From Pseudomonadota bacterium (lineage in GTDB: Bacteria; Bdellovibrionota; UBA1018; CAIMNF01), in NCBI GenBank assembly GCA_027486675.1, contig JAIXOQ010000006.1, positions 9,125 to 73,124 on the forward strand: a stretch of 64,000 nucleotides of DNA. The letters are read 5' to 3'. Below, piece after piece: positions 1,509-61,838 of this stretch. Position numbers and translations under genes: made by a program. Position 1 is the first letter of the stretch, and each line of letters begins with the position of its first letter. The notes beneath the pieces were generated by a model that made no database searches, had not been told where the DNA came from, and saw nothing but the letters and a program-made list of their open reading frames with translations.

Positions 1509-2645
1509 GTGTCCAAAATGCTCATGCGTTATCTCTCGGCGCCCATTCAGGCAGACCTTCAGAAAAAAATGGTCTTTTTAGGTGGGCCTAGGCAAGTGGG
1601 GAAGACTACGCTCGCACAAGGGTTGATTCATGATTTCTACGACGGCCATCCGGCTTACCTGAATTGGGACAGTGGCCCTGACCGAAAAAAGATCAAAAAC
1701 AGGGAGTGGCCAAACGCAGAACAGCTGATTGTCTTAGATGAAGTCCATAAGGCAAAGACTTGGCGAAACATGGTCAAGGGGTTCTACGATACCTTAAAAA
1801 ATACGCATTCATTTCTGATTACGGGGTCAGCCCGATTGGATCATTTTCGCAAAGGAGGCGATTCCCTTCTTGGGCGCTACCACTACTATCGGCTGCATCC
1901 TTACTCGGTAGCTGAGCTGGGTTACAAGAAGGATTGCTTAAAAAACCTCATGAACTTTGGTGGTTTTCCGGAGCCATATACCGAGGCAGATCCACGGAAT
2001 TTACGACGTTGGCACAATCAGAGGTTAGATCGGCTGATTCGGACGGATCTGAGAGATTGGGAAGATGTAAAGGACATGGAAAAAATTTTCGCTCTTGCGG
2101 AGGAACTGCCCAATCGCGTGGGATCACCTCTGTCTATTGCATCTCTTGCGCGCGATATCGAAGCAGATTTTAAGACGATCAAACGGTGGCTTGGGATCTT
2201 GTCCTCACTTTATTACTCCTTTTCAATCCCGCCTTTTGGGTCAGCGAAGATTCGAGCTGTAAAAAAAGAGCAGAAGCTCTATTTGTGGGACTGGAGCCAG
2301 GTTGAAAGCCCTGGAATTCGATTTGAAAACCTAGTTGCATCCCACCTGCTGAAGTACTGTCACTACCAGGAAGATGTGGAAGGACATCGCATGGAGCTTC
2401 GTTACTTGCGGGACACAGACAAGCGGGAGATTGACTTTGTGGTTCTTAAGAATAAAAAACCGGTCTTTGCGGTTGAATGTAAACACGGTGGGTCATCCGT
2501 ATCCCCTCATTTGTTTTACTTTCGGGATCGAACCGCGATACCTCGGTTTTACCAAGTGCATCTAGGTACTCAGTCTAGGCAAGTAGACGATCAGATATCA
2601 GTGATGCCATTTGAGGCCTTTTCCAAGGAGGTCGGCCTGCAGTAG
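1509..2645 (+). CDS. AAA+ ATPase with a C-terminal PD-(D/E)XK-like domain (DUF4143/COG1373-type)
   Basis: Walker A GGPRQVGKTT; DEVH Walker B; C-terminal REIDFVV...AVECK matches the D...ExK nuclease-fold signature. Confidence 0.75.
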   Translation: MSKMLMRYLSAPIQADLQKKMVFLGGPRQVGKTTLAQGLIHDFYDGHPAYLNWDSGPDRKKIKNREWPNAEQLIVLDEVHKAKTWRNMVKGFYDTLKNTHSFLITGSARLDHFRKGGDSLLGRYHYYRLHPYSVAELGYKKDCLKNLMNFGGFPEPYTEADPRNLRRWHNQRLDRLIRTDLRDWEDVKDMEKIFALAEELPNRVGSPLSIASLARDIEADFKTIKRWLGILSSLYYSFSIPPFGSAKIRAVKKEQKLYLWDWSQVESPGIRFENLVASHLLKYCHYQEDVEGHRMELRYLRDTDKREIDFVVLKNKKPVFAVECKHGGSSVSPHLFYFRDRTAIPRFYQVHLGTQSRQVDDQISVMPFEAFSKEVGLQ

Positions 2646-2679
2646 ACAACACTCCGGAAATGGCGTACAATATCGGAGT

Positions 2680-3864
2680 ATGCTCCGAAGACACTTTAAC
2701 CCCTCAAAAACACAGAGCTTTTTCCTCTTTGGCCCCCGGGGTACTGGTAAGTCAACCCTACTGAGGTCGCTCTTTTTAGATGCGCCAGCCACTCTCTGGA
2801 TCGACCTACTGACCGAAGCAGATGAAGACCGGTATGGGCGGCATCCGGATCAGCTCTCAGAGGTGCTTGCCACCGATCGCTACCGGACTGTTGTCATTGA
2901 TGAGATTCAAAAGGCGCCCAAGTTGCTCGATATCGTTCATCTGGAAATTGAAAAGAGAAAAACACGATTTGCCCTCACGGGTTCGAGTGCGAGGAAGCTT
3001 CGCCGCGCAGGGGCAAACCTGCTTGCCGGACGAGCGATCTCTTACAGTCTGGCGCCTTTGACGCACTTGGAACTCGGGAATCAGTTTGACTTAGATACTG
3101 CGCTTCGGTTTGGCACCTTACCTTCATGTGTTTCATTTTCAAACGAAGAGGAGGTCGGACTCTATCTTCGCTCTTATGTGAAGTCCTATTTGAAAGAAGA
3201 GATCGTGGCAGAGCAGATCGTTCGAAATGTGCGGCCCTTTCAAGATTTCTTAGAAGTTGCCGCCCAAACAAATGGTCAGATCGTAAGCTACGCTAAGATC
3301 GCACGTGATGTAGGAGTGGACGATAAGACCATCGCAAACTACTTCGAGATTCTAGTGGATACTTTAGTTGGATTTCAGCTGCCCCCTTTTCATAGGTCCA
3401 TCCGAAAGCGTCAAAAAATGCAGAGCAAATTCTATTTTTTTGATCCGGGGGTAAAGCGCGCACTGGATCGCACGCTTTCGATTCCTCTTCAGCCAAAAAC
3501 CTTTGCTTTTGGAAAGGCTTTTGAGCACTGGGTCATCTTAGAAGTCCATAGGCTGAATGAATACTCCGGCGTTGATTTCCGCTTCAGCTACATGATGACC
3601 AAAGACGATGCTGAAATTGACCTGATCATTGAGCGCCCCGGACAGCCGGACCTTCTCATCGAGATTAAATCCTCTGATTCACCGCAAGAGACAGAAGTGC
3701 GCGGATTGCAGACCTTTCAAAGTGACTGGGACCGACCCTGCGAGGCCCAGATGTGGTCCAATGACCCTGTGGCAAAAAAAATTGGGGATGTCCTTTGTTT
3801 GCATTGGGTGGAGGGGTTACAGAATCTGTTTCCTACTCTCCCCGCCAAATTCCTAACGCCATGA
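2680..3864 (+). CDS. AAA+ ATPase with a C-terminal PD-(D/E)XK-like domain (DUF4143/COG1373-type), paralog of 16466..17599
   Basis: Walker A FGPRGTGKST; IDEIQ Walker B; C-terminal AEIDLII...LIEIK. The start was moved to the internal Met (MLRRHF) so the gene does not overlap the upstream one. Confidence 0.75.
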   Translation: MLRRHFNPSKTQSFFLFGPRGTGKSTLLRSLFLDAPATLWIDLLTEADEDRYGRHPDQLSEVLATDRYRTVVIDEIQKAPKLLDIVHLEIEKRKTRFALTGSSARKLRRAGANLLAGRAISYSLAPLTHLELGNQFDLDTALRFGTLPSCVSFSNEEEVGLYLRSYVKSYLKEEIVAEQIVRNVRPFQDFLEVAAQTNGQIVSYAKIARDVGVDDKTIANYFEILVDTLVGFQLPPFHRSIRKRQKMQSKFYFFDPGVKRALDRTLSIPLQPKTFAFGKAFEHWVILEVHRLNEYSGVDFRFSYMMTKDDAEIDLIIERPGQPDLLIEIKSSDSPQETEVRGLQTFQSDWDRPCEAQMWSNDPVAKKIGDVLCLHWVEGLQNLFPTLPAKFLTP

Positions 3865-6711: not shown

Positions 6712-7938
6712 ATGGCTGACTTTCGTTACATCGCAGCCGACAGAAGCGGCAAAAAAGTGGAAGGCAAGCTCAGCGTCACGAACGAAGGCGAGCTGCGTAT
6801 GGTGCTGCGCGGCCAAGGGCTTAGGCCGCTTAAGATTCAAAAAGCCGGAATCGCAGAGCAAGACATAGGCGCTATGATTTCAGGCGCGCTCGGGATGGGT
6901 AAGGGTGTACCGGCGGATCGTCTGCTTAACTTTTTTAGACAGCTTCAAACGATGATCAATGCCGGCGTGCCGATTCTTCAGGCACTTGAAATTCAGTCGG
7001 AACAAGAGGCTCATCCGCAGCTTAAGAAAATCCTGATCAATTCCAGGGAACGCGTCAAAGAGGGAAAATTCTTGTGGGAGAGTTTCCTCAACTATCCCGA
7101 AGCTTTTGAACGGGTTGTTGTGGCGATGATTCAAGCCGGTGAAACCACCGGGACCTTAGACATCATGTTAAAACGTATCGGTAAATACATGGAAAACTCG
7201 TATCGCCTCAAGCGGCTGATTAAGACTTCCATGTACTATCCGATCGGTGTGCTGTCTCTTTCTTTTGTGATTGTTGCGGGCTTGCTGACTTGGGTTATTC
7301 CTCAGTTTGCATCGATGTTAACGCAGAATGGTCAGGCGCTGCCATGGATCACTTGGTTCATGATGAAGTTGTCCGAGGAGTTTCGGAAAAACTGGTACCT
7401 CATCTTCGCAGGCATGATTGGCGTGGCACTTTTGATCCGCGCCTATGTCAAAACCGAAGGTGGCAGAATTGCAGTTCAGCGTCTGGCGTTAAAGCTTCCA
7501 CTCTTTGGTAGCCTCATTCAAAAAACGGGTGTCGCACGTTTTTGTCGCACGATTTCAACACTGCTCAGTTCAGGGGTGCCGGTCTTAGACGCGCTTGATA
7601 TTACCCGTCGCGCTGCGGGATCGATTGTGTTTGAAGAGGCGATCCGGGACATGCGAAAGAGAGTAGAGATGGGGCAGACCTTTGGGACGGCCATTTCGTC
7701 GCATCCGATTTTCCCACGCATGGTGACCCAGATGATTGTGGTGGGTGAAAGTACCGGAAATTTGGATAAAATGACTGAAAAAGTAGCGGACTTTTACGAA
7801 GAAGAAGTGGAAACCACAGTGACGGGTATGACTAAACTCATCGAACCCTTTTTGATTGTCTTTATCGGTGGAATGATCGCAACCGTGATGATCGCTATGT
7901 ATCTTCCAATCTTCATGGCAGCCGGCGGTGCAACCTGA
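6712..7938 (+). CDS. pilC: type IV pilus inner-membrane platform protein PilC (GspF family)
   Basis: two repeated GspF domains with predicted TM segments; 408 aa; immediately downstream of pilB and pilT. Confidence 0.9.
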   Translation: MADFRYIAADRSGKKVEGKLSVTNEGELRMVLRGQGLRPLKIQKAGIAEQDIGAMISGALGMGKGVPADRLLNFFRQLQTMINAGVPILQALEIQSEQEAHPQLKKILINSRERVKEGKFLWESFLNYPEAFERVVVAMIQAGETTGTLDIMLKRIGKYMENSYRLKRLIKTSMYYPIGVLSLSFVIVAGLLTWVIPQFASMLTQNGQALPWITWFMMKLSEEFRKNWYLIFAGMIGVALLIRAYVKTEGGRIAVQRLALKLPLFGSLIQKTGVARFCRTISTLLSSGVPVLDALDITRRAAGSIVFEEAIRDMRKRVEMGQTFGTAISSHPIFPRMVTQMIVVGESTGNLDKMTEKVADFYEEEVETTVTGMTKLIEPFLIVFIGGMIATVMIAMYLPIFMAAGGAT

Positions 7939-7991
7939 GCCAGCCAAAACTTTCTCGTCCCATCTTAGGGGATTCTGAACCGGTCACGACC

Positions 7992-8879
7992 ATGGTGAAA
8001 CTCATAGAACGGGTCGCGCCTTCACTCACCAATGTCCTGGTCTTAGGTGAAAGTGGAACGGGCAAAGAGTTAGTCGCCCGAGCATTGCATGAACTGAGTC
8101 CCGCTTCTTCCCACGCTTTTATCGCGGTCAACTGTGGGGCCATCCCAGAAACCCTCATTGAGAGCGAGCTTTTCGGACACAAGAAGGGATCATTCACAGG
8201 TGCTGTTGCTGATAAGCCAGGGCTCTTTGAAGCAGCAGACGGTGGCACGCTTTTCTTAGATGAAATTGGGGAGCTTCCGCTTTCCATGCAGGTGAAGTTG
8301 CTCCGTGCACTTCAGGATCGATCGGTGAGGCGCGTTGGGGAGAACCGCGACGTCAAAGTGACTGCTCGCATTGTTGCTGCTACAAACAGAGATTTAGAAG
8401 AAGGTGTGCGGCGCGGTACATTCCGCGAAGATCTGTATTTTAGGTTGAATGTTATTCAAATTGAGACCCCCCCACTTCGGGCACGCGGCACTGATATTGA
8501 GGCGCTTGCGCAGATCTTTTTAGATCGCATGGGAAAAAAGTTATCGCGGAAGTTTGAAGGATTTACCGCAGAGGCTCTCAATGTTTTGCGCACTCATCGC
8601 TGGCCCGGAAACATCCGTGAATTAGAAAACGTGGTGGAGCGCGCCGCAACTTTAGAAACTGAGGCTTGGATCACGCCTCTCACGTTCCCGCCCGAGGTGG
8701 TGAAGGCTGCGGCCCAGTCGGGAAAAGAAGTGGGCGTGCTGACTTTGAAGGCAGACTTTTCTTTAGGGCAGGTGGATCTCTCGGCCGTGATGAAGAACGT
8801 GCGTGCGTTCTATGAACGTGAGGCGCTGATCGTGACTTTAGGGGATGAAGTGAAGGCGAAGGTCCTGATTCGGGAGTGA
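7992..8879 (+). CDS. sigma-54-dependent transcriptional activator lacking a receiver domain; the C-terminal HTH looks truncated or degenerate
   Basis: Walker A GESGTGKE 19 aa after the Met; GSFTGA (GAFTGA-type) loop; WPGNIRELEN; an in-frame stop at 7833-7835 inside pilC excludes an N-terminal REC domain; the protein ends ...EREALIVTLGDEVKAKVLIRE without a Fis-type recognition helix. Confidence 0.75.
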   Translation: MVKLIERVAPSLTNVLVLGESGTGKELVARALHELSPASSHAFIAVNCGAIPETLIESELFGHKKGSFTGAVADKPGLFEAADGGTLFLDEIGELPLSMQVKLLRALQDRSVRRVGENRDVKVTARIVAATNRDLEEGVRRGTFREDLYFRLNVIQIETPPLRARGTDIEALAQIFLDRMGKKLSRKFEGFTAEALNVLRTHRWPGNIRELENVVERAATLETEAWITPLTFPPEVVKAAAQSGKEVGVLTLKADFSLGQVDLSAVMKNVRAFYEREALIVTLGDEVKAKVLIRE

Positions 8880-8895
8880 GGTTTCATAGGGATGG

Positions 8896-9405
8896 TTATG
8901 CCTCCATCAGCTCTTCAAGAAAAAACTGAGTTTTTGCCGGAATCTTTGCCTTTGGAAAGTACCCTTCGATCAATTTAAAAACAACTGAAGCATCCTTGAT
9001 CTGAAGGTGTCGAATGAGAAATTGCACGTCATCCTTGTCGTGGCTATCCCAACGAGCGCTGAGGCACTTCATGGCCAGCATGTATCTGGGTTCCGGCGCC
9101 CAAACTCTAAGATGCGAGAGCTCGAGAACGGATTCTTTTTGGAACTCACCTTGGATGAACACCTTTGCAGCATCATTCAGCCAGTCGGGTGCAAGCTGAT
9201 GCGCTTCTCCTATTTCTGCAACAAACTTTCTGATCAATGCAGTGGGCGCAAAAATCGCATCCACATCTTTGGTCGCGTCCCTGGCTTGGTAGACTAAACA
9301 CATCACGGCACCGCCTACGATGCCGACCTCGCCTCGATCCTGATTTTGCCGGAGTTTTTCGTTGAGCTCAAAAAACAGATCTTTGATTTGCGTCGCTTTT
9401 AGCAT
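8896..9405 (-). CDS. nucleotidyltransferase of the AbiEii / DUF1814-like fold (short form); putative toxin
   Basis: GIVGGAVMCLVYQARDATKDVDAIF matches the GG[TA]A..L.Y...R.[ST].D[LV]D NTase motif of AbiEii-family toxins; 169 aa. Confidence 0.5.
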   Translation of the reverse strand: MLKATQIKDLFFELNEKLRQNQDRGEVGIVGGAVMCLVYQARDATKDVDAIFAPTALIRKFVAEIGEAHQLAPDWLNDAAKVFIQGEFQKESVLELSHLRVWAPEPRYMLAMKCLSARWDSHDKDDVQFLIRHLQIKDASVVFKLIEGYFPKAKIPAKTQFFLEELMEA

Positions 9406-9417
9406 GGGTCTCCATTG

Positions 9418-10005
9418 TTAAGCACGATTTAGGAAGTTTTCTTGCACGAAGATATTATTTCTTCGGTACGCCAATGGCGATTCTAGGATTGCGGTCGCTT
9501 TGAGGGACTCCATTCCGGAAACAAACCAGGGCTTGTCTAAGTAATAACTTTTCCCAGCCCAAGTGGGGGGGTCGATCCCTGCCTCATCACTCAATGAGCA
9601 TGCGATCGAGGCAAGCAATGCCCGAAGTGAATGAGGGAGTTCGGTAGGTGGAGGGAGCAGAAGAAGGAGCGGATTTACGGTTCGTCTAAATTCATCCACA
9701 AGTTCCATGAAGTGAAGTTTCCAACTGTGCTCCCCATCATGGATGGTTTTCGTGGCCACAGCATAAGTGCAGAAGTCCGGATTCAGCTCTTCCTCAGGCA
9801 GAGTTAAAATTGCCACCCTGCGGTCTACTGCCCCAGCAGTTGCGGCCAGACTTTGGATGGAAATGGAGGGAAGGTGTGCCTCGACATGGCGCACAGTCAG
9901 GCGCGAAATCTGGCCGTGGCCGGCCACGGCGGATTCCGTGAGGCGTCTATCGTTCCTCACTCTCTTGAGTGCGTCCCACCACAAGGGCGTTATAATAGAC
10001 TTCAT
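9418..10005 (-). CDS. hypothetical protein encoded 12 nt upstream of the NTase gene; candidate cognate partner or antitoxin (AbiEi-sized); the start is uncertain
   Basis: same strand as the NTase and tightly spaced; 195 aa; the N-terminal coding region contains the GTGGCCGGCCAC palindrome (encoding AVAGHG), so the true start may be the internal Met at about 9708. Confidence 0.35.
   Translation of the reverse strand: MKSIITPLWWDALKRVRNDRRLTESAVAGHGQISRLTVRHVEAHLPSISIQSLAATAGAVDRRVAILTLPEEELNPDFCTYAVATKTIHDGEHSWKLHFMELVDEFRRTVNPLLLLLPPPTELPHSLRALLASIACSLSDEAGIDPPTWAGKSYYLDKPWFVSGMESLKATAILESPLAYRRNNIFVQENFLNRA
9914..9932. repeat. REP-like palindromic element CCGTGGCCGGCCACGGCGG (core GTGGCCGGCCAC)
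   Basis: read directly: the 12-bp core is a perfect palindrome; two more copies are at 10157-10178 and 11496-11510. Confidence 0.5.
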
Positions 10006-10156
10006 ATGTATATTATAACATGCAATTATAGCTTAGCAATAGAAGTGGGCTCAGGCCCCCCGGGATGCTTTTTGATGCGCATACGCTCATTTCACCGCGA
10101 AAAACGGGCACTAGTGCAGCAGAAGTCATGGTTGGCCGGGAGGCAGGAAATCCGTG

Positions 10157-10178
10157 CCGCCGTGGCCGGCCGCGGCGG
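10157..10178. repeat. REP-like element, imperfect copy (CCGCCGTGGCCGGCCGCGGCGG)
   Basis: direct repeat of the 9914 element (GCCGTGGCCGGCC[A/G]CGGCGG[A/C]TTC), 243 bp downstream, in the intergenic AT-rich fic leader. Confidence 0.5.
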
Positions 10179-10270
10179 CTTCATTTGCAGACTTTTTTCC
10201 GGACATAAATTGCCCATTCATGCACCATTTTTATCTTAAAATATTGATAATGAAGGCATAAAATCTAACT

Positions 10271-11491
10271 GTGCAGGACAAGTTGCCGGACATTTTAGAG
10301 CCCATAGACAGGTCAGAATTTGTCTCACTCATGGAGCCTATGCTCATCGCAGAGGGCTCTCATCACCGCCATGAACTCACGGAACTCGCCCTGGAGTTAG
10401 TGGCTCGGTCGAGTGGGTTCTCGCGCTCCCTCCCTGAGGGGTTGTGCGCCAGTCTCGCAGACTTGGTGAGGTCGATGAATTGTTACTACAGCAATCTGAT
10501 CGAAGGACACAATACGCATCCGGTCGATATCGATCGGGCTCTGAAGCAGCAGTATGACAGCGATCCTGGCCGTCGGAGCTTGCAGAAAGAGGCCTTGGCC
10601 CACATCTCAGTCCAAAAGTGGATTGATGAGGGGGGACTTAAGGGACGGGTCTTCTTTGTTGAAAGTATTCAGGAAGTGCATCGCCGATTTTGCGACTTAT
10701 TACCCGAAGAGCTGCTGCAAGTAGAAAAGAAAATGACGGGCGAGCGTTTGCAGGTCATCGGTGGGGAGTTTCGACAGCAAGATGTGCAGGTTGGCCTGCA
10801 CGTGCCGGTGAGTCCTGGATCCGTACCGCGATTCCTGGCTCGGTATCAGGAGGTCTATTCTGGGCTTGGAAAGGCTGCATCCATTGTGGCGGCCGCAGCA
10901 GCGCACCATCGGCTGCTTTGGATACATCCATTCCTAGATGGAAATGGGCGTGTCGCTAGGTTGATTTCGCACGCAGGTTTACTGGAATGCTTAGACACCC
11001 GTGGTCTTTGGTCAGTAGCGCGTGGGCTGGCCAGGAATGTAACCGAGTATAAAAATCATTTGGCACTCTGTGATTTGGTGAGGCGAAATGACCTGGATGG
11101 CCGGGGAAATTTAAGCGAAGAGGAGTTAGCAGCATTCACACGTTTTTTCCTAAAAACGTGCCTCGATCAGGTGAATTTTATGGCTGAGCTCATGAAGCCA
11201 GAGCGCTTGCGTGCCAGGATTCAGCTTTGGACTGAAGAGGAAATCAGGCTTAAGAATCTGCCCCATCACGCAGGTCGGGTCATGGATGCGCTGCTGTACC
11301 GTGGTGAGGTGCCTCGAAACGAAGTGGCTGAAATCTTAGGCGTAGGCGAGCGCCATGCCCGGCGTACAATGCAGACCCTGATCGAGCGGGATATTGTTCA
11401 AGTGTCTGGCGCCCGTGATCCTTATCGCCTTGTTTTTTCGGCTGCCCATGCTGCTCGTTGGCTGCCCGGGCTTTTTCCAGATGTGGGATAG
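10271..11491 (+). CDS. fic: Fic/Doc family protein (class II: intramolecular inhibitory helix; C-terminal wHTH-like region)
   Basis: canonical Fic motif HPFLDGNGRVAR; N-terminal inhibitory motif S-N-L-I-E-G fits (S/T)xxxE(G/N); GTG start (an alternative ATG lies 60 nt downstream); 406 aa. Confidence 0.85.
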   Translation: MQDKLPDILEPIDRSEFVSLMEPMLIAEGSHHRHELTELALELVARSSGFSRSLPEGLCASLADLVRSMNCYYSNLIEGHNTHPVDIDRALKQQYDSDPGRRSLQKEALAHISVQKWIDEGGLKGRVFFVESIQEVHRRFCDLLPEELLQVEKKMTGERLQVIGGEFRQQDVQVGLHVPVSPGSVPRFLARYQEVYSGLGKAASIVAAAAAHHRLLWIHPFLDGNGRVARLISHAGLLECLDTRGLWSVARGLARNVTEYKNHLALCDLVRRNDLDGRGNLSEEELAAFTRFFLKTCLDQVNFMAELMKPERLRARIQLWTEEEIRLKNLPHHAGRVMDALLYRGEVPRNEVAEILGVGERHARRTMQTLIERDIVQVSGARDPYRLVFSAAHAARWLPGLFPDVG

Positions 11492-11495
11492 GGTT

Positions 11496-11510
11496 CGTGG
11501 CCGGCCACGG
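11496..11510. repeat. REP-like palindromic element TCGTGGCCGGCCACGG, third copy, just 3' of fic
   Basis: read directly. Confidence 0.5.
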
Positions 11511-11514
11511 GAAA

Positions 11515-11550
11515 TAAAAAACCCCCGGCAAGGAGACCCTGCCGGGGGTT
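11515..11550. terminator. bidirectional Rho-independent terminator between fic (+) and pilA (-)
   Basis: 9-bp stem CCCCCGGCA/TGCCGGGGG with a 9-nt loop, flanked by an A6 run on the plus strand (a T-run for pilA) and TT on the other side. Confidence 0.6.
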
Positions 11551-11571
11551 ATGAAGATTTTAAGTAGTCTG

Positions 11572-12180
11572 TTATTGCGTATTGCAGGCTGTCCCGATCA
11601 ACGTTCCTGCACTCACTGAACCGACAACGTAGTTCTGGTTGGCACCAGCGGCCCCGGCGGCGACAGCACCTGATACTAGACACATGAACTGACCAGCTCC
11701 AACAGTGCCCGCGGCGAAGTAACCAACTGATGCAACGGGCGCGGCGGTGGGTGCTGCTGCTGCCTGCCAGTTGTTAGCCGGGGTTGACGCAGTAACAGTG
11801 CCGACAGCTGTTCCCCTTGCTACCGCTGCTGTAGCAACAGGATTTATGCTATTTGCAAAGTAGTCGGTGCAGCCCGCGACTGCAGCGGCGTTATAGTTTG
11901 ATCCTACAGAGAAAAATCTCTGTCCTTCAGCAGCCGAGTAGCCCATCTCGCCCAAGCACATGCTGTATGTGCCTCCAGATGTAGCGGAAAAGGCCTGGGA
12001 GACGGCCCCAATCGCACCCAGTGCTGATCTTCCTTCTGCGCCCCGCGCACGCGCCTGAAAGTTTCTATATTGCGGAATTGCAATAGCAGCCAAAATTCCG
12101 ATGATAGCAACGACCACCATCAATTCGACCAGTGTAAAACCCCGTTCGTTTCTCAATGCTTTCAAATTCCCCATAGTCAT
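11572..12180 (-). CDS. pilA: type IVa major pilin PilA
   Basis: class III signal peptide [14 protein letters not shown]|[24 protein letters not shown] (Gly-1, Phe+1, Glu+5); Gly/Ala-rich C-terminal domain; 202 aa. Confidence 0.9.
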
Positions 12181-12256
12181 AAATCCCCTCTCCTCTCAAG
12201 ATCAGGTTGTTATACAGTTAAAATTAACACGCATATTTCACAAAAAAAGGACCAAA

Positions 12257-13003
12257 ATGCGGTCGGTTTTTAACAGTCTACGGCAACAGTTGTTTTTAGC
12301 CACGCTTATATTGCTCCTTTTTGGAGCACAGTACCGGATTTCCTTGGTCAATCAAATCAATAGATCAACTGCACAATTGAGCGAGTCTTTGCTGCACCAA
12401 AGAGCTGACTTTAAACCTGACCCTCACTTCATTCAGGCCACCGTTTTTGGTCATTGGGCACTCTGGGCGAATTGGTCTTGGATACAGTCCCTGCAGCTTC
12501 TTGGTGCTCGCGACGGTGAAGTAGAAAAACGAACGGAGCTTGAGCTCGATTTTGCGGAAACGACGTGGCGAAATGCAGTCGCACTCGATTCTGATTTTCT
12601 ACCTTGGTACTTAGATGCAGGTCTGTTTTTCTCAATCTTTTCGAATCGGCCGCAACCCTCTTACGATTTACTCACTCTTGCTGTGAAGCGTGTTCAAGCG
12701 CCGATGACTGAAAGACAAAAAGACTATGGCGATTGGCAACGCGCACCCATGGTCGCTATTCTTCGCGGCTACACAGCCGGCTTTAAGCTGCACGACTGGG
12801 GCCTCGCACGAGACGCGTTTTTAGATGCGGAAAAAATTCCAGGCGCGCCCGCTTACTTAGAAAACATGTCGGCATGGTTACTCAAGCCAGGCGGGGAAAA
12901 AGAACTCGGGAAGCGGATTCTGGAATCTTTGATCAAACAAACCTCAGATGAGCGTCAAAAATCTGCATACGAAGCTGAGCTAAAAGAACTGATGGAGTCT
13001 TAA
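12257..13003 (+). CDS. hypothetical membrane-anchored or secreted protein; first gene of an ABC-transporter operon
   Basis: start trimmed to the ATG preceded by AAAAAAAGGACC (SD); N-terminal hydrophobic segment LFLATLILLLFGA; 4-nt gap to the ABC ATPase. Confidence 0.45.
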   Translation: MRSVFNSLRQQLFLATLILLLFGAQYRISLVNQINRSTAQLSESLLHQRADFKPDPHFIQATVFGHWALWANWSWIQSLQLLGARDGEVEKRTELELDFAETTWRNAVALDSDFLPWYLDAGLFFSIFSNRPQPSYDLLTLAVKRVQAPMTERQKDYGDWQRAPMVAILRGYTAGFKLHDWGLARDAFLDAEKIPGAPAYLENMSAWLLKPGGEKELGKRILESLIKQTSDERQKSAYEAELKELMES

Positions 13004-13895: not shown

Positions 13896-14656
13896 TCCGC
13901 ACATTCCGGCAGGGTTTTGCAATCTTAGGATTCACGCTGCACGGCCTTGTCCGCGAACGCATCCTGTACAACGTCTTTTTCGTAGCCCTTGGACTTCTTG
14001 CGATCGGTTATTTAGCTTCAAAACTTGTTTATGGCCGCCAGGACCGCGTGATCTTGGACATCGGTGCTGCGGCGATTGAGTTGTGTTTAGTTTTTGTTGC
14101 AAGCGTCTTAGGTTCCCGCCTGATCCCAGCAGAAGTAGAATCCCGCTTAGCCTATTTGATTTTGGCGCGCCCCGTGCACCGGGCGACTTATTTGTTTGGC
14201 CGCACTTTAGGCCTTTGCGCACTGCTTACGCTTAACGCGTTTTTGCTATTTGCGGTTCTTGTGGCTTCTGTCGCGGTGATCGGTCGGTTACCTGAATGGG
14301 TTTTCTTAGAAGGCGCAATTTTAGTCTCTGTTCATGTCGCCTGGATTGCGGCGTTTACGATTTGGTTGTCCACGATGGTCTCTTCTGCGGTGGCAGTCAT
14401 GTCCACATGGGGACTGTACTTCATTAGCCAGAACATCCACCTTCTGCGGGGACTGAAAGATGGTCCGCCGCCGGTTGTTGCAGAAACCCTGACCCGCATC
14501 CTTCCTCAAGGGGCACCCTTCGCTTTGGAGTCCAGGCTTTCTTATGGCGTGGCGCTGCCGCTCCCCGAATTCCTAACTACGATTGCCTACGGGCTTTTGT
14601 GGGTCGGTGTGTTCTCATTGCTTGCGCTGTGGCGCTTTGAACGGAAGAGTTTGTAG
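13892..14656 (+). CDS. ABC-2 type transporter permease
   Basis: overlaps the ATPase stop by 4 nt; about 6 hydrophobic helices. Confidence 0.6.
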   Translation: MIRTFRQGFAILGFTLHGLVRERILYNVFFVALGLLAIGYLASKLVYGRQDRVILDIGAAAIELCLVFVASVLGSRLIPAEVESRLAYLILARPVHRATYLFGRTLGLCALLTLNAFLLFAVLVASVAVIGRLPEWVFLEGAILVSVHVAWIAAFTIWLSTMVSSAVAVMSTWGLYFISQNIHLLRGLKDGPPPVVAETLTRILPQGAPFALESRLSYGVALPLPEFLTTIAYGLLWVGVFSLLALWRFERKSL

Positions 14657-15697
14657 CTGTTGTTTTGGAGATAGTCCCAGGTCTAATGCTGCTTTTAAAT
14701 TGTGCGTCTGACAGAGGTGGCGGAGGTTTTTGAGGGTTGTCGTTCCACCGCAGGCAAGTGGAGTGATGTGATCGACTTGCAAGTGTGCCCGCGAAGGGCA
14801 ACGGGCCTTTGTCAGTGGCGAAATGTATTCACATTGACCGTTCGATCTTGCAAAAATCTTACGTTTAAATTGGAGGGGGATGAATCGTGAGGTGGAGGAT
14901 GCTTGTGGCTGTGGGGAACTCTTCGCTGTGGGCATCACCCCGTCCTGACGGGATTTTTGGGACTGCCCCGGATTCTGGTTATCTTCTGCCGTCCGAACCA
15001 ACTCCGAAATAGCCCGCTGCGACTCCACCTTTCCGAGGCTTCGCTCTTTTTTTTCGATCAGTGTTTTTAGGGCTTCCGTGAAAATATCTGCATTGGAATC
15101 TGCCCAGATCAATTCCCTGGCACGGTTGAGTAGCTTCATCCCATCTTCATCTAAGAAAAGTTTCACTTCCGTATGTGTGGCTGTCGCAACCCGGGTAGTT
15201 TCTTTCAGGCGTGGCGCTTCCGGTGCGGAGGATCGAGATAACAGGATTTTTTCTGTTTCTCTTTTGGACTTTCCTGCCACTGCAGTGAGGAGGTCGTTCT
15301 GTTGGCTACCACTCAGCTCATTTCCTAAAGCTTTTTCTTCCTTTATGAATCTCTGAACCTGGGTGGCACCTGTCAGAGTTAGGTCACCTGTTTCAATCAT
15401 GTGTTTTGCTATTTCATTCCGCCTTGCAAGTCGCATGGCAGCGATGCGTTCGTAGGCGGAGGATTCAGAATACCCAAGTTCCTTCCGCACATACTCAAAC
15501 AGACTTGGGTAAGAAAGTAATGCATAGGCTTTTCTTCGATCGATCTCCTCAAGGTGCGCGACTAATGTCGCTGTTGCGCGCTGCTCGACTCGGGAGATTG
15601 CAAATGTCATATGCAAGAGTTCAAGGTCATTGAGTGGAAACGATGCTGTTTCATTGGGAATTCTGGATGTTCTCTGATTCATCATTTTAGAAATCAT
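14615..15697 (-). CDS. HNH endonuclease domain protein with a DUF222-like N-terminal region (13E12-repeat-like family)
   Basis: C-terminal CEYISPLTKARCPSRAHLQVDHITPLACGGTTTLKNLRHLCQTHN (HNH: D-H...N...H with a Cys pair); homologous along its full length to 59910..60926; start trimmed to an internal Met by alignment with the paralog (the track ORF extends to 15799). Confidence 0.7.
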   Translation of the reverse strand: MISKMMNQRTSRIPNETASFPLNDLELLHMTFAISRVEQRATATLVAHLEEIDRRKAYALLSYPSLFEYVRKELGYSESSAYERIAAMRLARRNEIAKHMIETGDLTLTGATQVQRFIKEEKALGNELSGSQQNDLLTAVAGKSKRETEKILLSRSSAPEAPRLKETTRVATATHTEVKLFLDEDGMKLLNRARELIWADSNADIFTEALKTLIEKKERSLGKVESQRAISELVRTAEDNQNPGQSQKSRQDGVMPTAKSSPQPQASSTSRFIPLQFKRKIFARSNGQCEYISPLTKARCPSRAHLQVDHITPLACGGTTTLKNLRHLCQTHNLKAALDLGLSPKQQLQTLPFKAPQRKQ

Positions 15698-15924
15698 AAC
15701 CCCATGTTTTTGAGGCACCTCGCTGCCCGTGAGAGCACGCCAAACGTCATTTTCGATTTGATATGACCCTTGAAGCGAGATCGTGATTCCTGCGCCCAAT
15801 GCGTTTGTTCAGAAGAGGGTTTTGTTAGACATCTCAACTTCAAAACGGAATGAACTCCGAGACTCGTCAATAGAGAAATTTAAAGGTCATAAAAAAGACT
15901 CACTGAGGGATCCCGATCCAGGCC

Positions 15925-16353
15925 TCAAAAATTCCTGCCGGCCGTGTTCCTCAGTTCCCCCTTCAGAACTCTCTTTAAGTTCCATGTCATCCAGAACAAG
16001 ACAGCGTAAGCAATGGGCGAAGTGTGCGCTCCCCACAAGACAAAAGTCCCAATGAGGCCAGGAATGCAAAGTAATGCAACCACGAAGCGTAATGCCCCTT
16101 GGATACGAAGTAGACTTAACCCAAGGCCAAGGTGTGCCACCGTAGTCCAAAACAAACCTTTTACGATGCGTACTCGCCAAGGGAGGTATTCATCTTCCTT
16201 GAATACGCTGAGAAACCCGTATGAAGTCGAGACGGCGGCAAAGAGTGAGAGCGCCCAAGTTGATTTAAAAATGCTAATCGACTTAGCGAAGAAGAAGGAT
16301 GTTCTCCGCAAAGTCATAAAAGGCGCAATTGGCGAATTTTGAGTCCGCGGCAT
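15925..16353 (-). CDS. hypothetical small membrane protein
   Basis: 3-4 hydrophobic helices (for example VVALLCIPGLIGTFVLWGA); a plus-strand ORF overlaps it, so the strand choice is uncertain. Confidence 0.3.
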   Translation of the reverse strand: MPRTQNSPIAPFMTLRRTSFFFAKSISIFKSTWALSLFAAVSTSYGFLSVFKEDEYLPWRVRIVKGLFWTTVAHLGLGLSLLRIQGALRFVVALLCIPGLIGTFVLWGAHTSPIAYAVLFWMTWNLKRVLKGELRNTAGRNF

Positions 16354-16465
16354 TCTGATTTCAGGATGTCATTGGCACGTCTGGTTTGCAAAACCGTCGT
16401 TTTGCATTCGACGAGCAATTCCAATTTGGCACACCAAAGTTACAAAAAGATGATAATATGGACCT

Positions 16466-17599
16466 ATGTATGCCAGGTCCTTTGTGCAGCCGAATAGCAG
16501 CTTCTTTCTTTTTGGTCCCCGCGGGACCGGGAAAAGCTCGCTCATGCGAAGTCTCTTTCCCGGTGCGCTCCACTTTGACCTTTTGGAGTCGGACTACTAT
16601 CACCAGCTCCTTGCTCGACCCCAGCTTCTCGATGATCTGATCCCAACTACCTATCGGGACTGGGTAGTCTTAGATGAGATTCAAAAGGTGCCGGAGCTTC
16701 TCAATGAGGTGCATCGCCTCATCGAGAGACGAAAACTTAAGTTCGCTTTGACCGGGTCCAGTGCGCGCAGTCTCAGGAAGAAAGGCGTTAATTTACTGGC
16801 TGGCCGCGCTGTCACAAAACATCTATTTCCGCTCACGGTTCAAGAATCCAAGAAAGATTTCGATCTCGCTCATGCTCTAAAATTTGGAATGCTTCCCAGT
16901 GTTTTTGGTAACTCCCATTCTTCCTCTTACCTTGCCTCATACGTCAGAACCTATTTGAAAGAGGAAGTGCAGCAGGAAGGCTTAGTGAGGAACTTGCCAG
17001 CTTTTGCAAGGTTTCTTGAGTCTGCAACTTTTTCTCAAGGCTCTGTGCTCAATATGAGTGAAGTGGCGAGGGATTGTGGCATCCACAGGAAGGTTGTCGC
17101 GGACTACTTTGTTATCCTTGAGGACCTGCTTCTTGCCTGCCGAGTTCCGGTATTCACGAAAAAAGCAAAGCGGGATCTTCTGACTAGCGAGAAATTCTTC
17201 TTTTTTGACAATGGTGTCTATCGAGAGTTGCGACCGCGCGGCCCCTTAGATTCGACGGAGGGGCTCGAAGGGGTCTCGCTCGAGACCTTGCTGTTTCAGG
17301 AAATTCGAGCGTTGAATGAATACCTAGGACTAGGGTACGGGATTTATTACTGGCGCACGAAGCAGAAGCAGGAAATCGACTTCGTGCTTTACGGAAAGGC
17401 CGGACTGATTGCAATCGAAGTGAAGCGTTCCAACAAACCGCGTGGCGATGACCTAGATGCATTGCGGCTTTTTAAGAGTGATTATCCTATGGCCCGATGT
17501 TTTTTGGCATACGGCGGGACGAAGAGGTTTATCCAAAGCGATATAGAGTGTGTTCCTTATGAGGATTTTTTAAGGAAGCTTCCAGAATTCCTCAGATAG
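16466..17599 (+). CDS. AAA+ ATPase with a C-terminal PD-(D/E)XK-like domain (DUF4143/COG1373-type), third copy
   Basis: FFLFGPRGTGKSSLMRSLF; LDEIQK; ALTGSSARSL; C-terminal QEIDFVL...IAIEVK; clearly paralogous to 2680..3864. Confidence 0.75.
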   Translation: MYARSFVQPNSSFFLFGPRGTGKSSLMRSLFPGALHFDLLESDYYHQLLARPQLLDDLIPTTYRDWVVLDEIQKVPELLNEVHRLIERRKLKFALTGSSARSLRKKGVNLLAGRAVTKHLFPLTVQESKKDFDLAHALKFGMLPSVFGNSHSSSYLASYVRTYLKEEVQQEGLVRNLPAFARFLESATFSQGSVLNMSEVARDCGIHRKVVADYFVILEDLLLACRVPVFTKKAKRDLLTSEKFFFFDNGVYRELRPRGPLDSTEGLEGVSLETLLFQEIRALNEYLGLGYGIYYWRTKQKQEIDFVLYGKAGLIAIEVKRSNKPRGDDLDALRLFKSDYPMARCFLAYGGTKRFIQSDIECVPYEDFLRKLPEFLR

Positions 17600-35749: not shown

Positions 35750-37198
35750 TCAGTTTGTAAAATCCCTAGCTGTAATCCCGTATTTCTCAAGCTTTCGAAG
35801 CAAGGTTTTCTTCGGGATATTCGCATGGATCGCCGTTTGATTGATTTTGCCTTTGAATGCCTTAAGGGCGCTGATCAAAAACTGCTTTTCAAACTCTTCC
35901 TTGCTGGCCTGGAAGTCAAAACGTTCCATGGAGACGCTGACGCTTAAGCCGTCGCCCATTTCACTCGTGTCCTCAGATCCGTTTTCGTCTAGCACTACGG
36001 TTCCCGCACTTAAGACTGAGCCGGTGCTCACCCCAGATTGGAGTTTTTCCGGCAGGCTCTCTGGATGAATCAGGTCCATGTTTTCCAACACGAATGAGTG
36101 CTCGATCACGTTTTCCAATTCACGAATATTTCCTGGCCATTTGTGCGCCTTCATCAAAGTGACGGCTCCTTCCGTTAAGCCTTTGATATTCTTTTTGTAT
36201 CGGCTGTTGAAACGCTCAATGAAGTAGGCCGAAAGCGCTTCGATATCATTCTTACGTTCACGCAGTGGTGGAAGTGCGATCGGTAGGACATTCAGCCTGT
36301 AGAACAGATCTTCACGAAACTGTTCATTCTTTATCATTTGTTCCAGGTTTCTGTTTGTAGCAGCTACGATGCGTACATTCGCCTCGATTTCTCGATTGCT
36401 GCCCACAGGGGTGAATTTCTTCTCCTGCAGCACCCGGAGTAACTTCACTTGCATGGCAGGTGAAATCTCGCCGATCTCATCTAAAAACAGTGTTCCGCCT
36501 TCTGCGTATTGGAACTTTCCAATCTTTCTCGAGTCAGCACCGGTGAATGCTCCTTTTTCGTGACCAAAGAACTCGCTCTCAATGAGGGATTCAGGAATCG
36601 CAGAGCAATTGACGGCGACGAAACGATTGTCTTTCCTTGGACCGTAGAAGTGGAGCGCCTGTGCTACAAGTTCTTTACCCGTACCGCTTTCACCGCGTAT
36701 TAAGACTGGGGTGTCGGTTTGCGCAAGGCGATCAATGACCGTAAAGATTTTTTTCATCTCGCTGCTTTGGCCAACAAAGTCCGTACCGTTGGGTAGGCGG
36801 AAGATCGGCGCAGAAAGAGTCATCGCACGTACCATGCTTTGCGTCTTAAAGGCCTTGTCAATCATGTAGACCAAGTTGTCTGACTTCACAGGCTTTTCTA
36901 GGTAGTTGTATGCCCCAATTTTTGTTGCCTCCACTGCGTCTCTGATATTTGAAAATGCCGTAAGAATCATCACCATGATCGAAGCATCATGGGATTTGAT
37001 CTCCCGCAGCGCCTCTATGCCCGTCATGCGCGGCATATTTACGTCCATCAGGACCGCATCAAAAGAGCCCGCCTTCACCTTAGTCACGGCGTCTTCGCCG
37101 TCGGCTGCTTCATCTGTCGCATATCCAGCTTCTTTAAGAGCTGAAGTTACAGAGAGTCTTAGGTCCTTGTCGTCATCGACTACCAATATTTTAGGCAT
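35750..37198 (-). CDS. sigma-54-dependent response regulator (NtrC family)
   Basis: REC domain (ILVVDDD...D in DAVLMDVNMP); AAA+ sigma-54 domain (GESGTGKE, GAFTGA, WPGNIRELEN); C-terminal Fis-type HTH (QTAIHANIPKKTLLRKLEKYGI). Confidence 0.9.
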   Translation of the reverse strand: MPKILVVDDDKDLRLSVTSALKEAGYATDEAADGEDAVTKVKAGSFDAVLMDVNMPRMTGIEALREIKSHDASIMVMILTAFSNIRDAVEATKIGAYNYLEKPVKSDNLVYMIDKAFKTQSMVRAMTLSAPIFRLPNGTDFVGQSSEMKKIFTVIDRLAQTDTPVLIRGESGTGKELVAQALHFYGPRKDNRFVAVNCSAIPESLIESEFFGHEKGAFTGADSRKIGKFQYAEGGTLFLDEIGEISPAMQVKLLRVLQEKKFTPVGSNREIEANVRIVAATNRNLEQMIKNEQFREDLFYRLNVLPIALPPLRERKNDIEALSAYFIERFNSRYKKNIKGLTEGAVTLMKAHKWPGNIRELENVIEHSFVLENMDLIHPESLPEKLQSGVSTGSVLSAGTVVLDENGSEDTSEMGDGLSVSVSMERFDFQASKEEFEKQFLISALKAFKGKINQTAIHANIPKKTLLRKLEKYGITARDFTN

Positions 37199-39203
37199 AG
37201 TTTCGTTTCTCCTTCGATTTCTTGGATTGAGTTGTGAGTCCTGGAAATTTTTGTGTTTCTTTCAGATTCATCGGCAATCGCACAATGATTTTAGTGCCGG
37301 AACTGGGCGCGCTTTGAATGGAAACCGTGCCTCGGTGTGCTTCGATGAAATAGCGGGAGAGGTAGAGGCCGAGACCGGTTCCCTTCACTCTACGGGTAAC
37401 GTCATTTTTCACTCTGTGAAAGCGTTGGAAAAGGTGACGTTGCTCAGCCTCAGGGATCCCAATACCTTGGTCTAGGATCTCAATGACAGCAAAGTCTCCC
37501 TCTTCTTTCGAAGATATTTTTACGGTCGTATTTTCTGCCGAGTACTTGATTGCATTATCGATGAGGTTCGTCAGCACCTTTTGGATGAGGCCGGCGTCCA
37601 TGCGGAAAGGAAATAATGCTTCGAAGTCAGTTTTTATAAGAATCCCTTTTGCCTGAGCCGAGAAAGCCAGTTTTGCGATGGATTGCTCTAAAATTGCTTC
37701 AAGGTCGCGTGATTGAAGCTGCAGGTTGAGGCCTTGGGTGTCGAGGCGGCTCACTTCCAATAAGGAACTCACGAAATGATTGAGTTCATCTGAAGCACCA
37801 ACAATGCTGCCGAGTACCGAACGTTCGGTTTCGTCGAGTTTCCCTTGAAGCTCGCGGTTCAGGCGTTCTGCTAGACCCTGAATTTTCGCAATTGGGGTTT
37901 TTAAATCATGAGTCACGAGTTGGAGGAAGTTGGTCTTGAGTTCCTCTACCTCAAGGAGCAAACGATTTTGTTCTTCGAGTTGTCCACGCTTCCGATGCTC
38001 TAAATAAAGGCGGAAAGGGAGCATGAGATAGAAGCTGATAATAATCGCTGAAATTGGGTTTGCTAGAGGTAGCCAGAGACCATGGATGCGTCCGATGGGT
38101 TGAAACAGAATCCACGAAGAGATCAGCCACAGCGCCAGCACCCCTGTGGTAATCCACATGAGTCGAGATGGGCGTGCTCGGAATGATGCCTGTACGAGTA
38201 GAATCGCAGTTAGAAAGACCAGGAGTGCCACGATTGGCCTTGGAGTCGTTGAAATTCCGCCATGATTTAAGATCGAGTCTAAAATAAAGGCGTGAACTAG
38301 AAGTTTAGGTACGAGCAGCGGCTCGAGGCCGTTGGGTACTGTCGTATGGTCATTGGGATTTTCTTTTTGGAAGGCGCCAACTAGGACTAAGCGTCCCTGC
38401 AGTTCGGCACTGCCGACCTTCCCGTGAATCACATCTAGGGCACTGTATGTTGGGTAAGGGAAGCGGGCGTGCTCCGCATCGTAAATAAGTGAGTCCTTCG
38501 TGTGGGGCCGGAAGAGAAAATATTCCGCGTCGGATTCCTTTTCTCGGTAAAGGCCGGGCGGTGATGAAAGATCTTGATCCGTGTAGACGCGACTCGCGAG
38601 ATTCATTTCTAAGGTGCTACGGCCATACAGCGAGACCAGTGCACGGCGGGTCACTCTGTCTTTACCAAAGATCTTTCCGTCTCGATGGATCAGTGCGACA
38701 GCGCTCGGGAGTGACTGCAGATCCTGCGGGGGTAGGACTTCGCCATTGAGGTCAAAGGGGAGCCCAAGTACGAGCGGCGTGCCTCTAAGGTTCATGCGAA
38801 TGCCGGATTGAAGGAAGCGCTCCATCGTCTTTTGGCTATCCGCTGCATTTTTTGGAATCGCTTGATTCAAGTCGACGATGTAACCAATGCCTTTGGGGTG
38901 AGCTGCTTCCAGTTTTTCTGCAAGGTCGGCGTGGGTCTCCAAAGAGAGCGGTGTGACCTCATTCAGCTCGGCGCTGGTCACGTCGTCGATGGTGATCAGT
39001 GCGATGCGGGCGTCTGGGGTGGGGTTAAAGCTTAAGCGGTGCCTGAGGTCAAACAGTGTGGATTCTATGAAGTCTAGCGGGAGGATTAAAGACGAGGCAG
39101 TGACGACGGCTGCCAAAATGACACCAAGCAGGGCCGATCTAAGTGTGAATTCCCGCGCGCTCATCCCGGACCGGATGGTATCGTTTCGACACCAATAAGT
39201 CAA
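37191..39203 (-). CDS. sensor histidine kinase with a periplasmic CHASE2-like domain
   Basis: N-terminal TM helix, a large extracytoplasmic region, 3 TM helices, then H-box (LVTHDLKTPIAKIQG), N/G boxes (NLIDNAIKYS; GTGLGL); overlaps the regulator gene by 8 nt. Confidence 0.8.
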   Translation of the reverse strand: MTYWCRNDTIRSGMSAREFTLRSALLGVILAAVVTASSLILPLDFIESTLFDLRHRLSFNPTPDARIALITIDDVTSAELNEVTPLSLETHADLAEKLEAAHPKGIGYIVDLNQAIPKNAADSQKTMERFLQSGIRMNLRGTPLVLGLPFDLNGEVLPPQDLQSLPSAVALIHRDGKIFGKDRVTRRALVSLYGRSTLEMNLASRVYTDQDLSSPPGLYREKESDAEYFLFRPHTKDSLIYDAEHARFPYPTYSALDVIHGKVGSAELQGRLVLVGAFQKENPNDHTTVPNGLEPLLVPKLLVHAFILDSILNHGGISTTPRPIVALLVFLTAILLVQASFRARPSRLMWITTGVLALWLISSWILFQPIGRIHGLWLPLANPISAIIISFYLMLPFRLYLEHRKRGQLEEQNRLLLEVEELKTNFLQLVTHDLKTPIAKIQGLAERLNRELQGKLDETERSVLGSIVGASDELNHFVSSLLEVSRLDTQGLNLQLQSRDLEAILEQSIAKLAFSAQAKGILIKTDFEALFPFRMDAGLIQKVLTNLIDNAIKYSAENTTVKISSKEEGDFAVIEILDQGIGIPEAEQRHLFQRFHRVKNDVTRRVKGTGLGLYLSRYFIEAHRGTVSIQSAPSSGTKIIVRLPMNLKETQKFPGLTTQSKKSKEKRNYA

Positions 39204-61681: not shown

Positions 61682-61838
61682 GCCTTAGGCAGGCAAATTG
61701 CAGGCCGCCCAAGGACCGCGTCAAATTAAAGTTATTTCGCAATCTCCCGATAGGATTCTTGAGGGACCATGCTGGTCCCCAAACTTTATAAACTCAACAA
61801 GACCCAGGGAACAGGGTGAGAGCTAGAGGGAGTCTCAC

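Follow-up and report, generated by a model that had tools for sequence, protein, structure and literature searches.

What kind of regulator occupies the position of PilR in a type IV pilus (pil) cluster when the DNA leaves no room for a receiver and the protein ends before a DNA-reading helix? This question is raised by a stretch of 64,000 nucleotides (“the window”; GenBank assembly GCA_027486675.1, contig JAIXOQ010000006.1, positions 9,125 to 73,124 of the forward strand) from a Pseudomonadota bacterium that GTDB places in the Bdellovibrionota (UBA1018; CAIMNF01), in which a short gene directly downstream of pilC encodes a sigma-54 activator (“the activator”). A previous reading of this DNA, made from the letters and their open reading frames (ORFs) and called here the sequence-only reading, left the choice between a functional minimal protein and a relic. 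We find that, by the evidence of its sequence and its relatives, the activator is intact and belongs to a conserved family of minimal bacterial enhancer-binding proteins (bEBPs) in the Bdellovibrionales, with an architecture that comprises an N-terminal lead of ~10 aa, a complete sigma-54 AAA+ module and a 50-aa tail without a recognition helix. No paper on this family was found in the literature. The gene and the motifs of its core are as follows.

7992..8879, + strand: the minimal sigma-54 activator in its ATG form, 295 aa from the first canonical start (ATG) to the stop.
8046..8069, + strand: Walker A, GESGTGKE; G, S, G, T, G, K and E invariant and the first E nearly so in alignment A2 (63 stub proteins).
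8187..8204, + strand: sigma-54 contact loop GSFTGA, a variant of GAFTGA, invariant in alignments A1, A2 and A3.
8259..8264, + strand: the Walker B Asp-Glu within LFLDEIGE; D90 and E91 invariant.
8601..8630, + strand: the sensor II region WPGNIRELEN; 8 of 10 residues invariant (W, P, G, N, R, E, L, E).

By every sequence test applied, the activator is a bEBP (sigma-54 activator, AAA+ clade 6). The Pfam profile Sigma54_activat (PF00158) matches the 295-aa ORF at E=1.4e-69 (233.5 bits vs a cut-off of 20.2) across profile positions 12-168 of 168, and AAA_lid_14 is found at residues 163-244; the same scan gives neither Response_reg nor HTH_8. Sequence matches in the PDB include NifA, ZraR, FleQ, NtrC1 and PspF at 1e-60 to 1e-77, and the AAA+ fold predicted by AlphaFold2 (AF2; mean predicted local distance difference test, pLDDT, 85.7) resembles LuxO, NtrC1, FleQ and PspF with a Foldseek TMt (TM-score normalised to target length) of 0.89-0.92. 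An NCBIfam scan returned no equivalog at its cut-off, i.e., for all curated models the protein is a generic bEBP. Throughout the family alignments, all catalytic residues and the GSFTGA loop are unchanged. This loop is among the activity-compatible GAFTGA variants, and two Desulfovibrio EBPs that carry it have target genes assigned in a regulon table (PMC4641369). The complete AAA+ sigma-54 module that the sequence-only reading recognised from GESGTGKE, GSFTGA and WPGNIRELEN is thus confirmed by the profile search, as is its assertion that a REC (receiver) domain cannot be present: the in-frame stop at 7833-7835 is real, pilC extends to 7938 and Response_reg is not found. Because pilC and this stop fill the upstream DNA, a REC domain is physically impossible here; even counted from the most upstream candidate start (CTG 7935), just 37 residues precede Walker A.

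The other end of the protein is defined by two overlapping features.

8724..8876, + strand: the C-terminal tail past the AAA+ lid, 51 aa, with conserved F, G and A positions and a ratio of non-synonymous to synonymous substitution rates (dN/dS) of 0.07-0.08.
8778..8867, + strand: a vestigial Fis-type domain, two predicted helices corresponding to the first two of HTH_8 (AF2 model, hhalign).

The last 59 residues yield no Pfam match even at E<=10; the same test applied to the tail of P0114, a relative that bears a helix-turn-helix (HTH), finds HTH_8 at 8.9e-16. In the AF2 model (314-aa numbering), the tail comprises three helices, short (253-262), long (282-300) and short (305-311), with block-mean pLDDT of 78-87 over residues 271-314. 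Profile-profile alignment (hhalign) of the 63 stub proteins in A2 with 23 REC-less relatives that have HTH_8 (A3) is collinear end to end and stops at template column 344 of 370, at ‘AAELLGiTF’; therefore the recognition helix, RSIRYRLKKLG, is without counterpart in the stub. A tail lacking a Fis-type recognition helix, as had been proposed, is confirmed by the failure to find HTH_8 at E<=10, though it is longer than first thought (51 aa rather than about 35). The long tail helix may serve dimerisation.

This end point is shared across a large family. A homologue search over 5.8 billion proteins, from which 124 sequences were retrieved, brought up many REC-less relatives, and in 80 of the 124 the tail extends 91-96 residues past WPGN. 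All 80 of these stub forms end at one alignment column (‘...EAL.Y.K.DE..A..LL’), 1-2 residues past the helix that precedes the recognition helix of Fis-type domains. Their cluster representatives (~80) are 58-89% identical and come from Bdellovibrionales metagenome-assembled genomes and metagenomes. In a neighbour-joining tree of the AAA+ core, which is without bootstrap support and approximate, the 80 stub forms and three with short non-homologous extensions make up one clade of 83, of which the window lineage (the window, P0002 and P0121) is the earliest branch, and forms with HTH_8 or a degenerate third helix fall outside it. Among the relatives, P0081-P0097 and P0110 (locus L048) are REC-less and have a third C-terminal helix, but one in which HTH_8 is no longer recognised (e.g., ...AARLLQTTRARIAASA), and other REC-less proteins bear non-homologous C-terminal extensions; from these sequences, the recognition helix seems to have degenerated more than once within the REC-less lineage. 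Two other searches were less useful. A search of representatives clustered at 50% was uninformative, the family there amounting to a few entries in a list dominated by multi-domain bEBPs, and a contig scan with lineage-specific peptide patterns found ordinary REC-containing bEBPs exclusively, its best three matches (L002, L003 and L008) lying outside pil contexts and saying nothing on PilR orthology. Public names for family members, such as ‘response regulator PilR’ and ‘Fis family regulator’, credit these proteins with domains that they do not have.

Is the window's own copy a working gene or the debris of an insertion? The question arises from its immediate downstream neighbour.

8880..11495, no strand assigned: a window-specific islet of 2.6 kb encoding a DUF6036 nucleotidyltransferase, a 195-aa protein and a Fic/SoFic protein (PADLOC SoFic, 8.6e-26).

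The islet begins directly past the activator stop codon, the canonical start codon is absent at the family's usual start position, and a strain-specific REC-less bEBP made by frameshift is known from Desulfovibrio (PMC4641369), all of which would fit a functionless pilR fragment cut at its 3' end by the DUF6036/Fic insertion and at its 5' end by deletion. Yet the islet was inserted after the stop codon of the activator, ahead of the pilA terminator, and leaves the activator uninterrupted. In two close relatives, L001 (89% identical) and L045, the islet is absent and the activator, which ends at the identical stop codon, has the pilA terminator directly after it and then pilA in convergent orientation; the islet therefore truncates nothing. 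Moreover, the ~80 cluster representatives share the end point, the catalytic motifs are all invariant, and dN/dS in pairwise comparisons of three genomes (window, L001, L045) stays at 0.03-0.10 whichever segment of the gene is taken (core, 0.03; tail, 0.07-0.08). These substitution patterns point to purifying selection on core and tail and also on the N-terminal extension described below. The ‘pilR remnant left by insertion’ of the sequence-only reading is refuted by the clade-wide end point, the islet-free relatives with the same stop and the constraint on the tail, and we regard a pseudogene as extremely improbable.

The islet has counterparts elsewhere in the cluster. Compared with L001, the window pil cluster contains three intergenic islets: the one just described; another at 1509-3864 between ribF and pilB, with two AAA_14/DUF4143 ATPases (PADLOC candidate PDC-S01); and a third at 14615-17599 between the ABC permease gene and pilD, with an HNH protein, a 142-aa ORF and an AAA_14/DUF4143 ATPase. 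Cargo also lies between activator and pilA in L047 (7055-11006; AAA_14/DUF4143, a MazE/PemK pair and a Schlafen/AlbA_2 protein) and in L043 (6283-10271; two large genes without a Pfam match), which suggests a hotspot at which defence or toxin-antitoxin modules have integrated repeatedly. The window contains three copies of a palindromic motif, (C)CGTGGCCGGCCACGG, two of them inside the islet (9913-9936 and 10159-10182) and one at its right junction beside the pilA terminator (11494-11517), and a related sequence is present at the equivalent place in L001; the motif could be a repetitive extragenic palindromic (REP)-like element or a recombination site.

The missing canonical start bears on where the protein begins, for which four features are relevant.

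7935..8879, + strand: the probable full coding sequence of the activator from a CTG start, 314 codons plus stop (homology, substitution pattern, family length).
7935..7938, + strand: a CTGA overlap in which the putative CTG start shares TG with the pilC stop TGA (7936-7938); kept in L001 and L045.
7924..7930, + strand: a G-rich, putative Shine-Dalgarno-like GGCGGTG in the 3' end of pilC, 5-11 nt upstream of the CTG.
7938..7991, + strand: the N-terminal extension, codons 2-19 (SQPKLSRPILGDSEPVTT), completing the start of the AAA+ domain, with coding-type substitutions.

The ORF at 7992-8879 taken by the sequence-only reading exists, but its true start is probably further upstream. ATG 7992 is the first canonical start past the in-frame stop and was picked by gene callers in three assemblies, and it is the start called for P0001, P0002 and P0121; a protein that started there would have 295 aa, and the 57 nt upstream would be an untranslated spacer. 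However, the frame upstream of it reads LSQPKLSRPILGDSEPVTT, which aligns residue for residue with the N-termini of all relatives (length 313-322 aa, N-terminus M..ID.IKRPILG.SP...) and provides positions 1-11 of the Sigma54_activat profile, missing from the 295-aa ORF. When the window, L001 and L045 are compared pairwise over the 19 codons upstream of ATG 7992, third positions account for 8/10, 11/14 and 11/15 of the differences (binomial p = 0.0034, 0.0007 and 0.0018), synonymous and non-synonymous codon changes stand at 7:2, 10:2 and 9:3, and dN/dS of the extension is 0.03-0.10; this third-position bias and low dN/dS argue that the 19 codons are translated.

Between CTG 7935 and ATG 7992 there is no in-frame ATG, GTG or TTG, and the window, L001 and L045 all have CTG where P0018 has ATG, overlapping the pilC stop (cCTGAg). 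The G-rich stretch ahead of the CTG is encoded by the Gly-rich PilC C-terminus and has equivalents (GGAGG, GGTGG or AGGCGGA) at the same site in L001, L042, L043, L044 and L045, which in L042, L043 and L044 come before ATG or GTG starts; no Shine-Dalgarno-like element precedes ATG 7992. In other family loci, an ATG or GTG start overlaps the pilC stop or follows it by 0-2 nt, while in L046 and L047 the start comes 24 and 16 nt after that stop, respectively. A -1 frameshift fusing PilC to the activator was ruled out, as no conserved slippery heptamer occurs at the junction in the three genomes. From these sequence patterns, initiation or coupled re-initiation at CTG 7935 is likely and would give a 314-aa protein of the usual family length; a start at ATG 7992 appears unlikely. 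Consequently, the activator start in the window's lineage is probably annotated 19 codons too late.

Does the family descend from PilR? Its neighbourhood, compared across ten loci (the window, L001 and L042-L049), points that way. The two neighbouring genes that matter most are these.

6712..7938, + strand: pilC (Pfam T2SSF, 1.1e-64), the upstream gene to which the activator is coupled.
11572..12180, - strand: pilA, a type IV pilin gene (N_methyl, 1.2e-10) convergent with the activator; the expected PilR target.

The gene order ribF-pilB-pilT-pilC-activator is found in 10/10 loci, and downstream of the activator come pilA, a pilG/H/I-like ABC module, pilD and pilMNOPQ, sometimes after an interposed gene or islet. 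No terminator-like site is predicted between pilC and the activator, and no conserved extra gene accompanies it in the ten loci. pilS is likewise missing from 10/10, with no kinase gene between pilC and pilA, and the lack of an adjacent pilS-like kinase observed for the window therefore holds in nine related loci as well. In Bdellovibrio bacteriovorus HD100, the order pilB-pilT1-pilC-pilS-pilR is found at the same place (PMC4237445); the pil cluster order is common to B. bacteriovorus, Myxococcus and Geobacter (PMC6060248), and some other Bdellovibrio-like organisms are without pilSR altogether (PMC13147790; PMC6060248). The activator thus occupies the slot held by pilS-pilR in related deltaproteobacterial-type pil clusters. 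We infer that it is a PilR descendant that lost pilS and the receiver and then, in one sub-clade, the DNA-reading helix. In this history, a PilS-PilR pair (stage 1) would have lost pilS and REC to leave an AAA+ protein with HTH, of the type of P0114 and P0115 (stage 2), after which the recognition helix would have been lost in one clade and would have degenerated independently in others (stage 3).

The known activators each resemble this family in part. Like PilR (HD100), the activator holds the slot downstream of pilB-pilT-pilC and beside pilA, the automatic name from JGI is PilR, and its tail is collinear with HTH_8-bearing relatives; unlike PilR, it has no receiver, PilS, recognition helix or -24/-12 promoter at pilA, and it fails on three defining marks of PilR, i.e., receiver, kinase and HTH. 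Like the group 4 proteins PspF and HrpR/HrpS, it has no N-terminal regulatory domain and its AAA+ core is expected to be constitutively competent. However, PspF and HrpS have a working HTH and are enhancer-bound, whereas the stub form is without HTH_8, and they are restrained by the trans-acting PspA and HrpV, whereas no conserved antagonist gene is adjacent to the activator in the ten loci. It is the REC-less relatives with HTH_8 (P0114, P0115 and others) that have the true PspF-like architecture. Of the constitutive activator ‘in PspF/HrpS style’ that the sequence-only reading offered as its other option, the receiver-less part stands, but PspF and HrpS retain the HTH that is absent here, and FleT is the closer likeness. 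FlgR (Helicobacter) and CtcC (Chlamydia), in group 5, differ from the activator in that they keep the receiver and are controlled by phosphorylation.

Precedents exist for bEBPs without regulatory (R) and/or DNA-binding (D) domains (PMC7175178; PMC3162934): FlgR and CtcC are without a D domain, and FleT is the only bEBP that a 2020 review lists as lacking both R and D domains (PMC7175178). FleT (Rhodobacter/Cereibacter sphaeroides) is, like the activator, an AAA+ core without R or functional D domain and is, like it, encoded inside the operon of an associated surface machine. FleT forms part of a flagellar cascade and works together with FleQ, while the activator belongs to a type IV pilus cluster, and its host to another phylum; the activator family, unlike FleT, has a conserved two-helix D-domain stub and no partner identified, the two being likened by architecture alone. 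Considering the pil context and the HTH-bearing sister forms, the activator family probably arose independently of FleT.

How might such a protein work? We lean toward the reading that it is a PilR-derived AAA+ core with a two-helix stub, constitutive, enhancer-independent, dose-controlled via pilC and directed at targets outside the pil cluster. Without a receiver, the AAA+ ring would not be gated by phosphorylation, and both assembly and ATP hydrolysis would be constitutive. Without a recognition helix, the usual enhancer tethering by Fis-type contact would be impossible, and the activator would contact the sigma-54 holoenzyme from solution, in the manner of FlgR, CtcC and an engineered AAA+-only DctD. 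The sigma-54 regulon of Salmonella was reportedly defined by means of a bEBP that is promiscuous and constitutively active (PMC3844500). Dose would set the activity of the protein encoded here, the gene being presumably transcribed with pilB-pilT-pilC from a start that abuts the pilC stop; in the window lineage, the weak CTG overlapping that stop would be consistent with low-level translational coupling. Targets would lie elsewhere in the genome and would include neither pilA nor the other pil promoters of the cluster.

Several observations weigh against this reading. A -24/-12 element (GG-N10-GC with a sigma-54 consensus) is found upstream of pilA in none of the ten loci, including those with HTH-bearing activators, and there are no sigma-54 sites upstream of pilB or pilM or elsewhere in the pil cluster of the window. 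Window-wide, TGGCAC-N5-TTGCW with <=2 mismatches is seen 41 times vs 35.6 expected by chance, and rpoN is not in the 64 kb. PilR orthology rests on gene position and the automatic JGI name; some partner might equally well dock on the conserved tail; and the constitutive activity, the action from solution, the tail-mediated dimerisation and the initiation at the CTG are steps that we infer. The search for -24/-12 elements upstream of pilA and pilM that the sequence-only reading had suggested was negative, and a role of the minimal activator in pilA transcription is unsupported. Its expectation that pilA is regulated otherwise than under the PilS-PilR paradigm agrees with the data; a part for the activator itself in that regulation is not borne out by the ten loci.

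The main rival to enhancer-independent action is a FleT-like co-activator that would work only in mixed oligomers with a DNA-binding bEBP supplying the enhancer tethering. FleT, which lacks R and D, acts as a FleQ/FleT hetero-oligomer (PMC7175178; PMC7277832), and the conserved two-helix stub would be a Fis-type part that could mediate subunit contacts. The window also encodes a full bEBP and a kinase (35750-39203), which form a canonical two-component sigma-54 system.

35750-37198, - strand: a bEBP of the canonical two-component type, REC-AAA+(GAFTGA)-HTH_8, 27 kb away and outside the pil cluster.
37191-39203, - strand: a CHASE2 histidine kinase gene overlapping that of the REC-AAA+-HTH_8 protein.

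HrpR/HrpS and RedR1/RedR2 are pairs of close bEBP paralogues. Against a hetero-oligomer, no partner bEBP is conserved beside the activator in the ten loci, and the second bEBP of the window is only 50% identical to it over AAA+; because this falls within the 42-57% measured here for unrelated bEBPs, it is not a close paralogue, and it was ruled out as a specific paralogous partner. We therefore hold a FleT-like role to be doubtful, if the strongest of the alternatives. Further removed is a modulator, which would titrate sigma-54, poison the rings formed by other bEBPs or serve the pilus machinery in a way that has nothing to do with sigma-54. The failure to find a sigma-54 promoter in the pil cluster and the tight coupling of the gene to pilC would suit it; on the contrary, the contact loop GSFTGA, both Walker motifs and the sensor motifs do not vary within the family, as is expected of a working activator, and to our knowledge a modulator-type AAA+ protein has no precedent. 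We consider it improbable.

By its architecture, the family would be the second case of a bEBP lacking both R and D, after FleT. It is also a well-populated family with living intermediates (REC-less with HTH, degenerate third helix, two-helix stub), and because these exist, the stepwise simplification of a two-component regulator is traceable. The components of the idea are all known; what appears to be new is the large family, its apparently independent origin and the evolutionary intermediates. We hold as speculative, and less likely than not, the mechanism in which a natural, widespread AAA+-only PilR derivative acts independently of enhancers with its dose set by translational coupling to PilC, here through a CTG that overlaps the pilC stop. 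Were it true, part or all of the sigma-54 regulon of these predatory-type bacteria would be licensed when the pilus motor is made, with neither phosphorelay nor DNA tethering, and DNA binding, to judge from the recognition helix having eroded repeatedly among REC-less relatives, would be dispensable after receiver loss. The question that the family raises is how a minimal activator stays specific and controlled, for which dose, pilC coupling and a partner protein are candidates.

Candidate sigma-54 promoters were found outside the pil promoters. In L042, a perfect site, TGGCACAGCTGTTGCT (TGGCAC-N5-TTGCT), lies at 1168-1183 on the minus strand ~26 nt upstream of a start codon, and canonical sigma-54 promoter sequences therefore occur in the clade. 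The gene behind it encodes a 446-aa secreted protein of unknown function beside the ribF-pil cluster, and homologues of it are missing from the window and from the other loci searched. Within the window, the best intergenic sigma-54-like site (AGGCAGGCAAATTGCA, 61687-61702, + strand) precedes by ~137 nt an ORF (61839-62429) whose 196-aa product has a signal-peptide-like N-terminus and no Pfam match. Two further matches were set aside: ‘TGGTCC-N5-TTGTG’ upstream of pilA has GT in place of GC at -12 and is not conserved in L001, and a good match that L001 has within pilC (TGGCACCGCGATTGCG) lacks a conserved equivalent in the window. A sigma-70 scan of 7600-12500 gave no convincing pilA promoter and no internal activator promoter; sigma-70-like hexamers, read by eye, are present upstream of pilA in L044, L047 and L049.

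The region beside pilA also warrants a correction. The mechanically called 300-aa ORF at 12101-13003 (+ strand) overlaps pilA, and the real gene probably starts at ATG 12257 (MRSVFNSL..., ~248 aa), which agrees with L001 and L045; its product has no Pfam domain, and the gene stands where pilG would, before those for the ABC ATPase and permease. Over the start codon of this gene, which is divergent from pilA, lies an inverted repeat, GACC-N7-GGTC (12250-12264; GACCGCATTTTGGTC on the minus strand). The repeat is partly inside the 76-bp intergenic region between pilA and the pilG-like gene and is conserved in L001, and it may be an operator or an mRNA hairpin.

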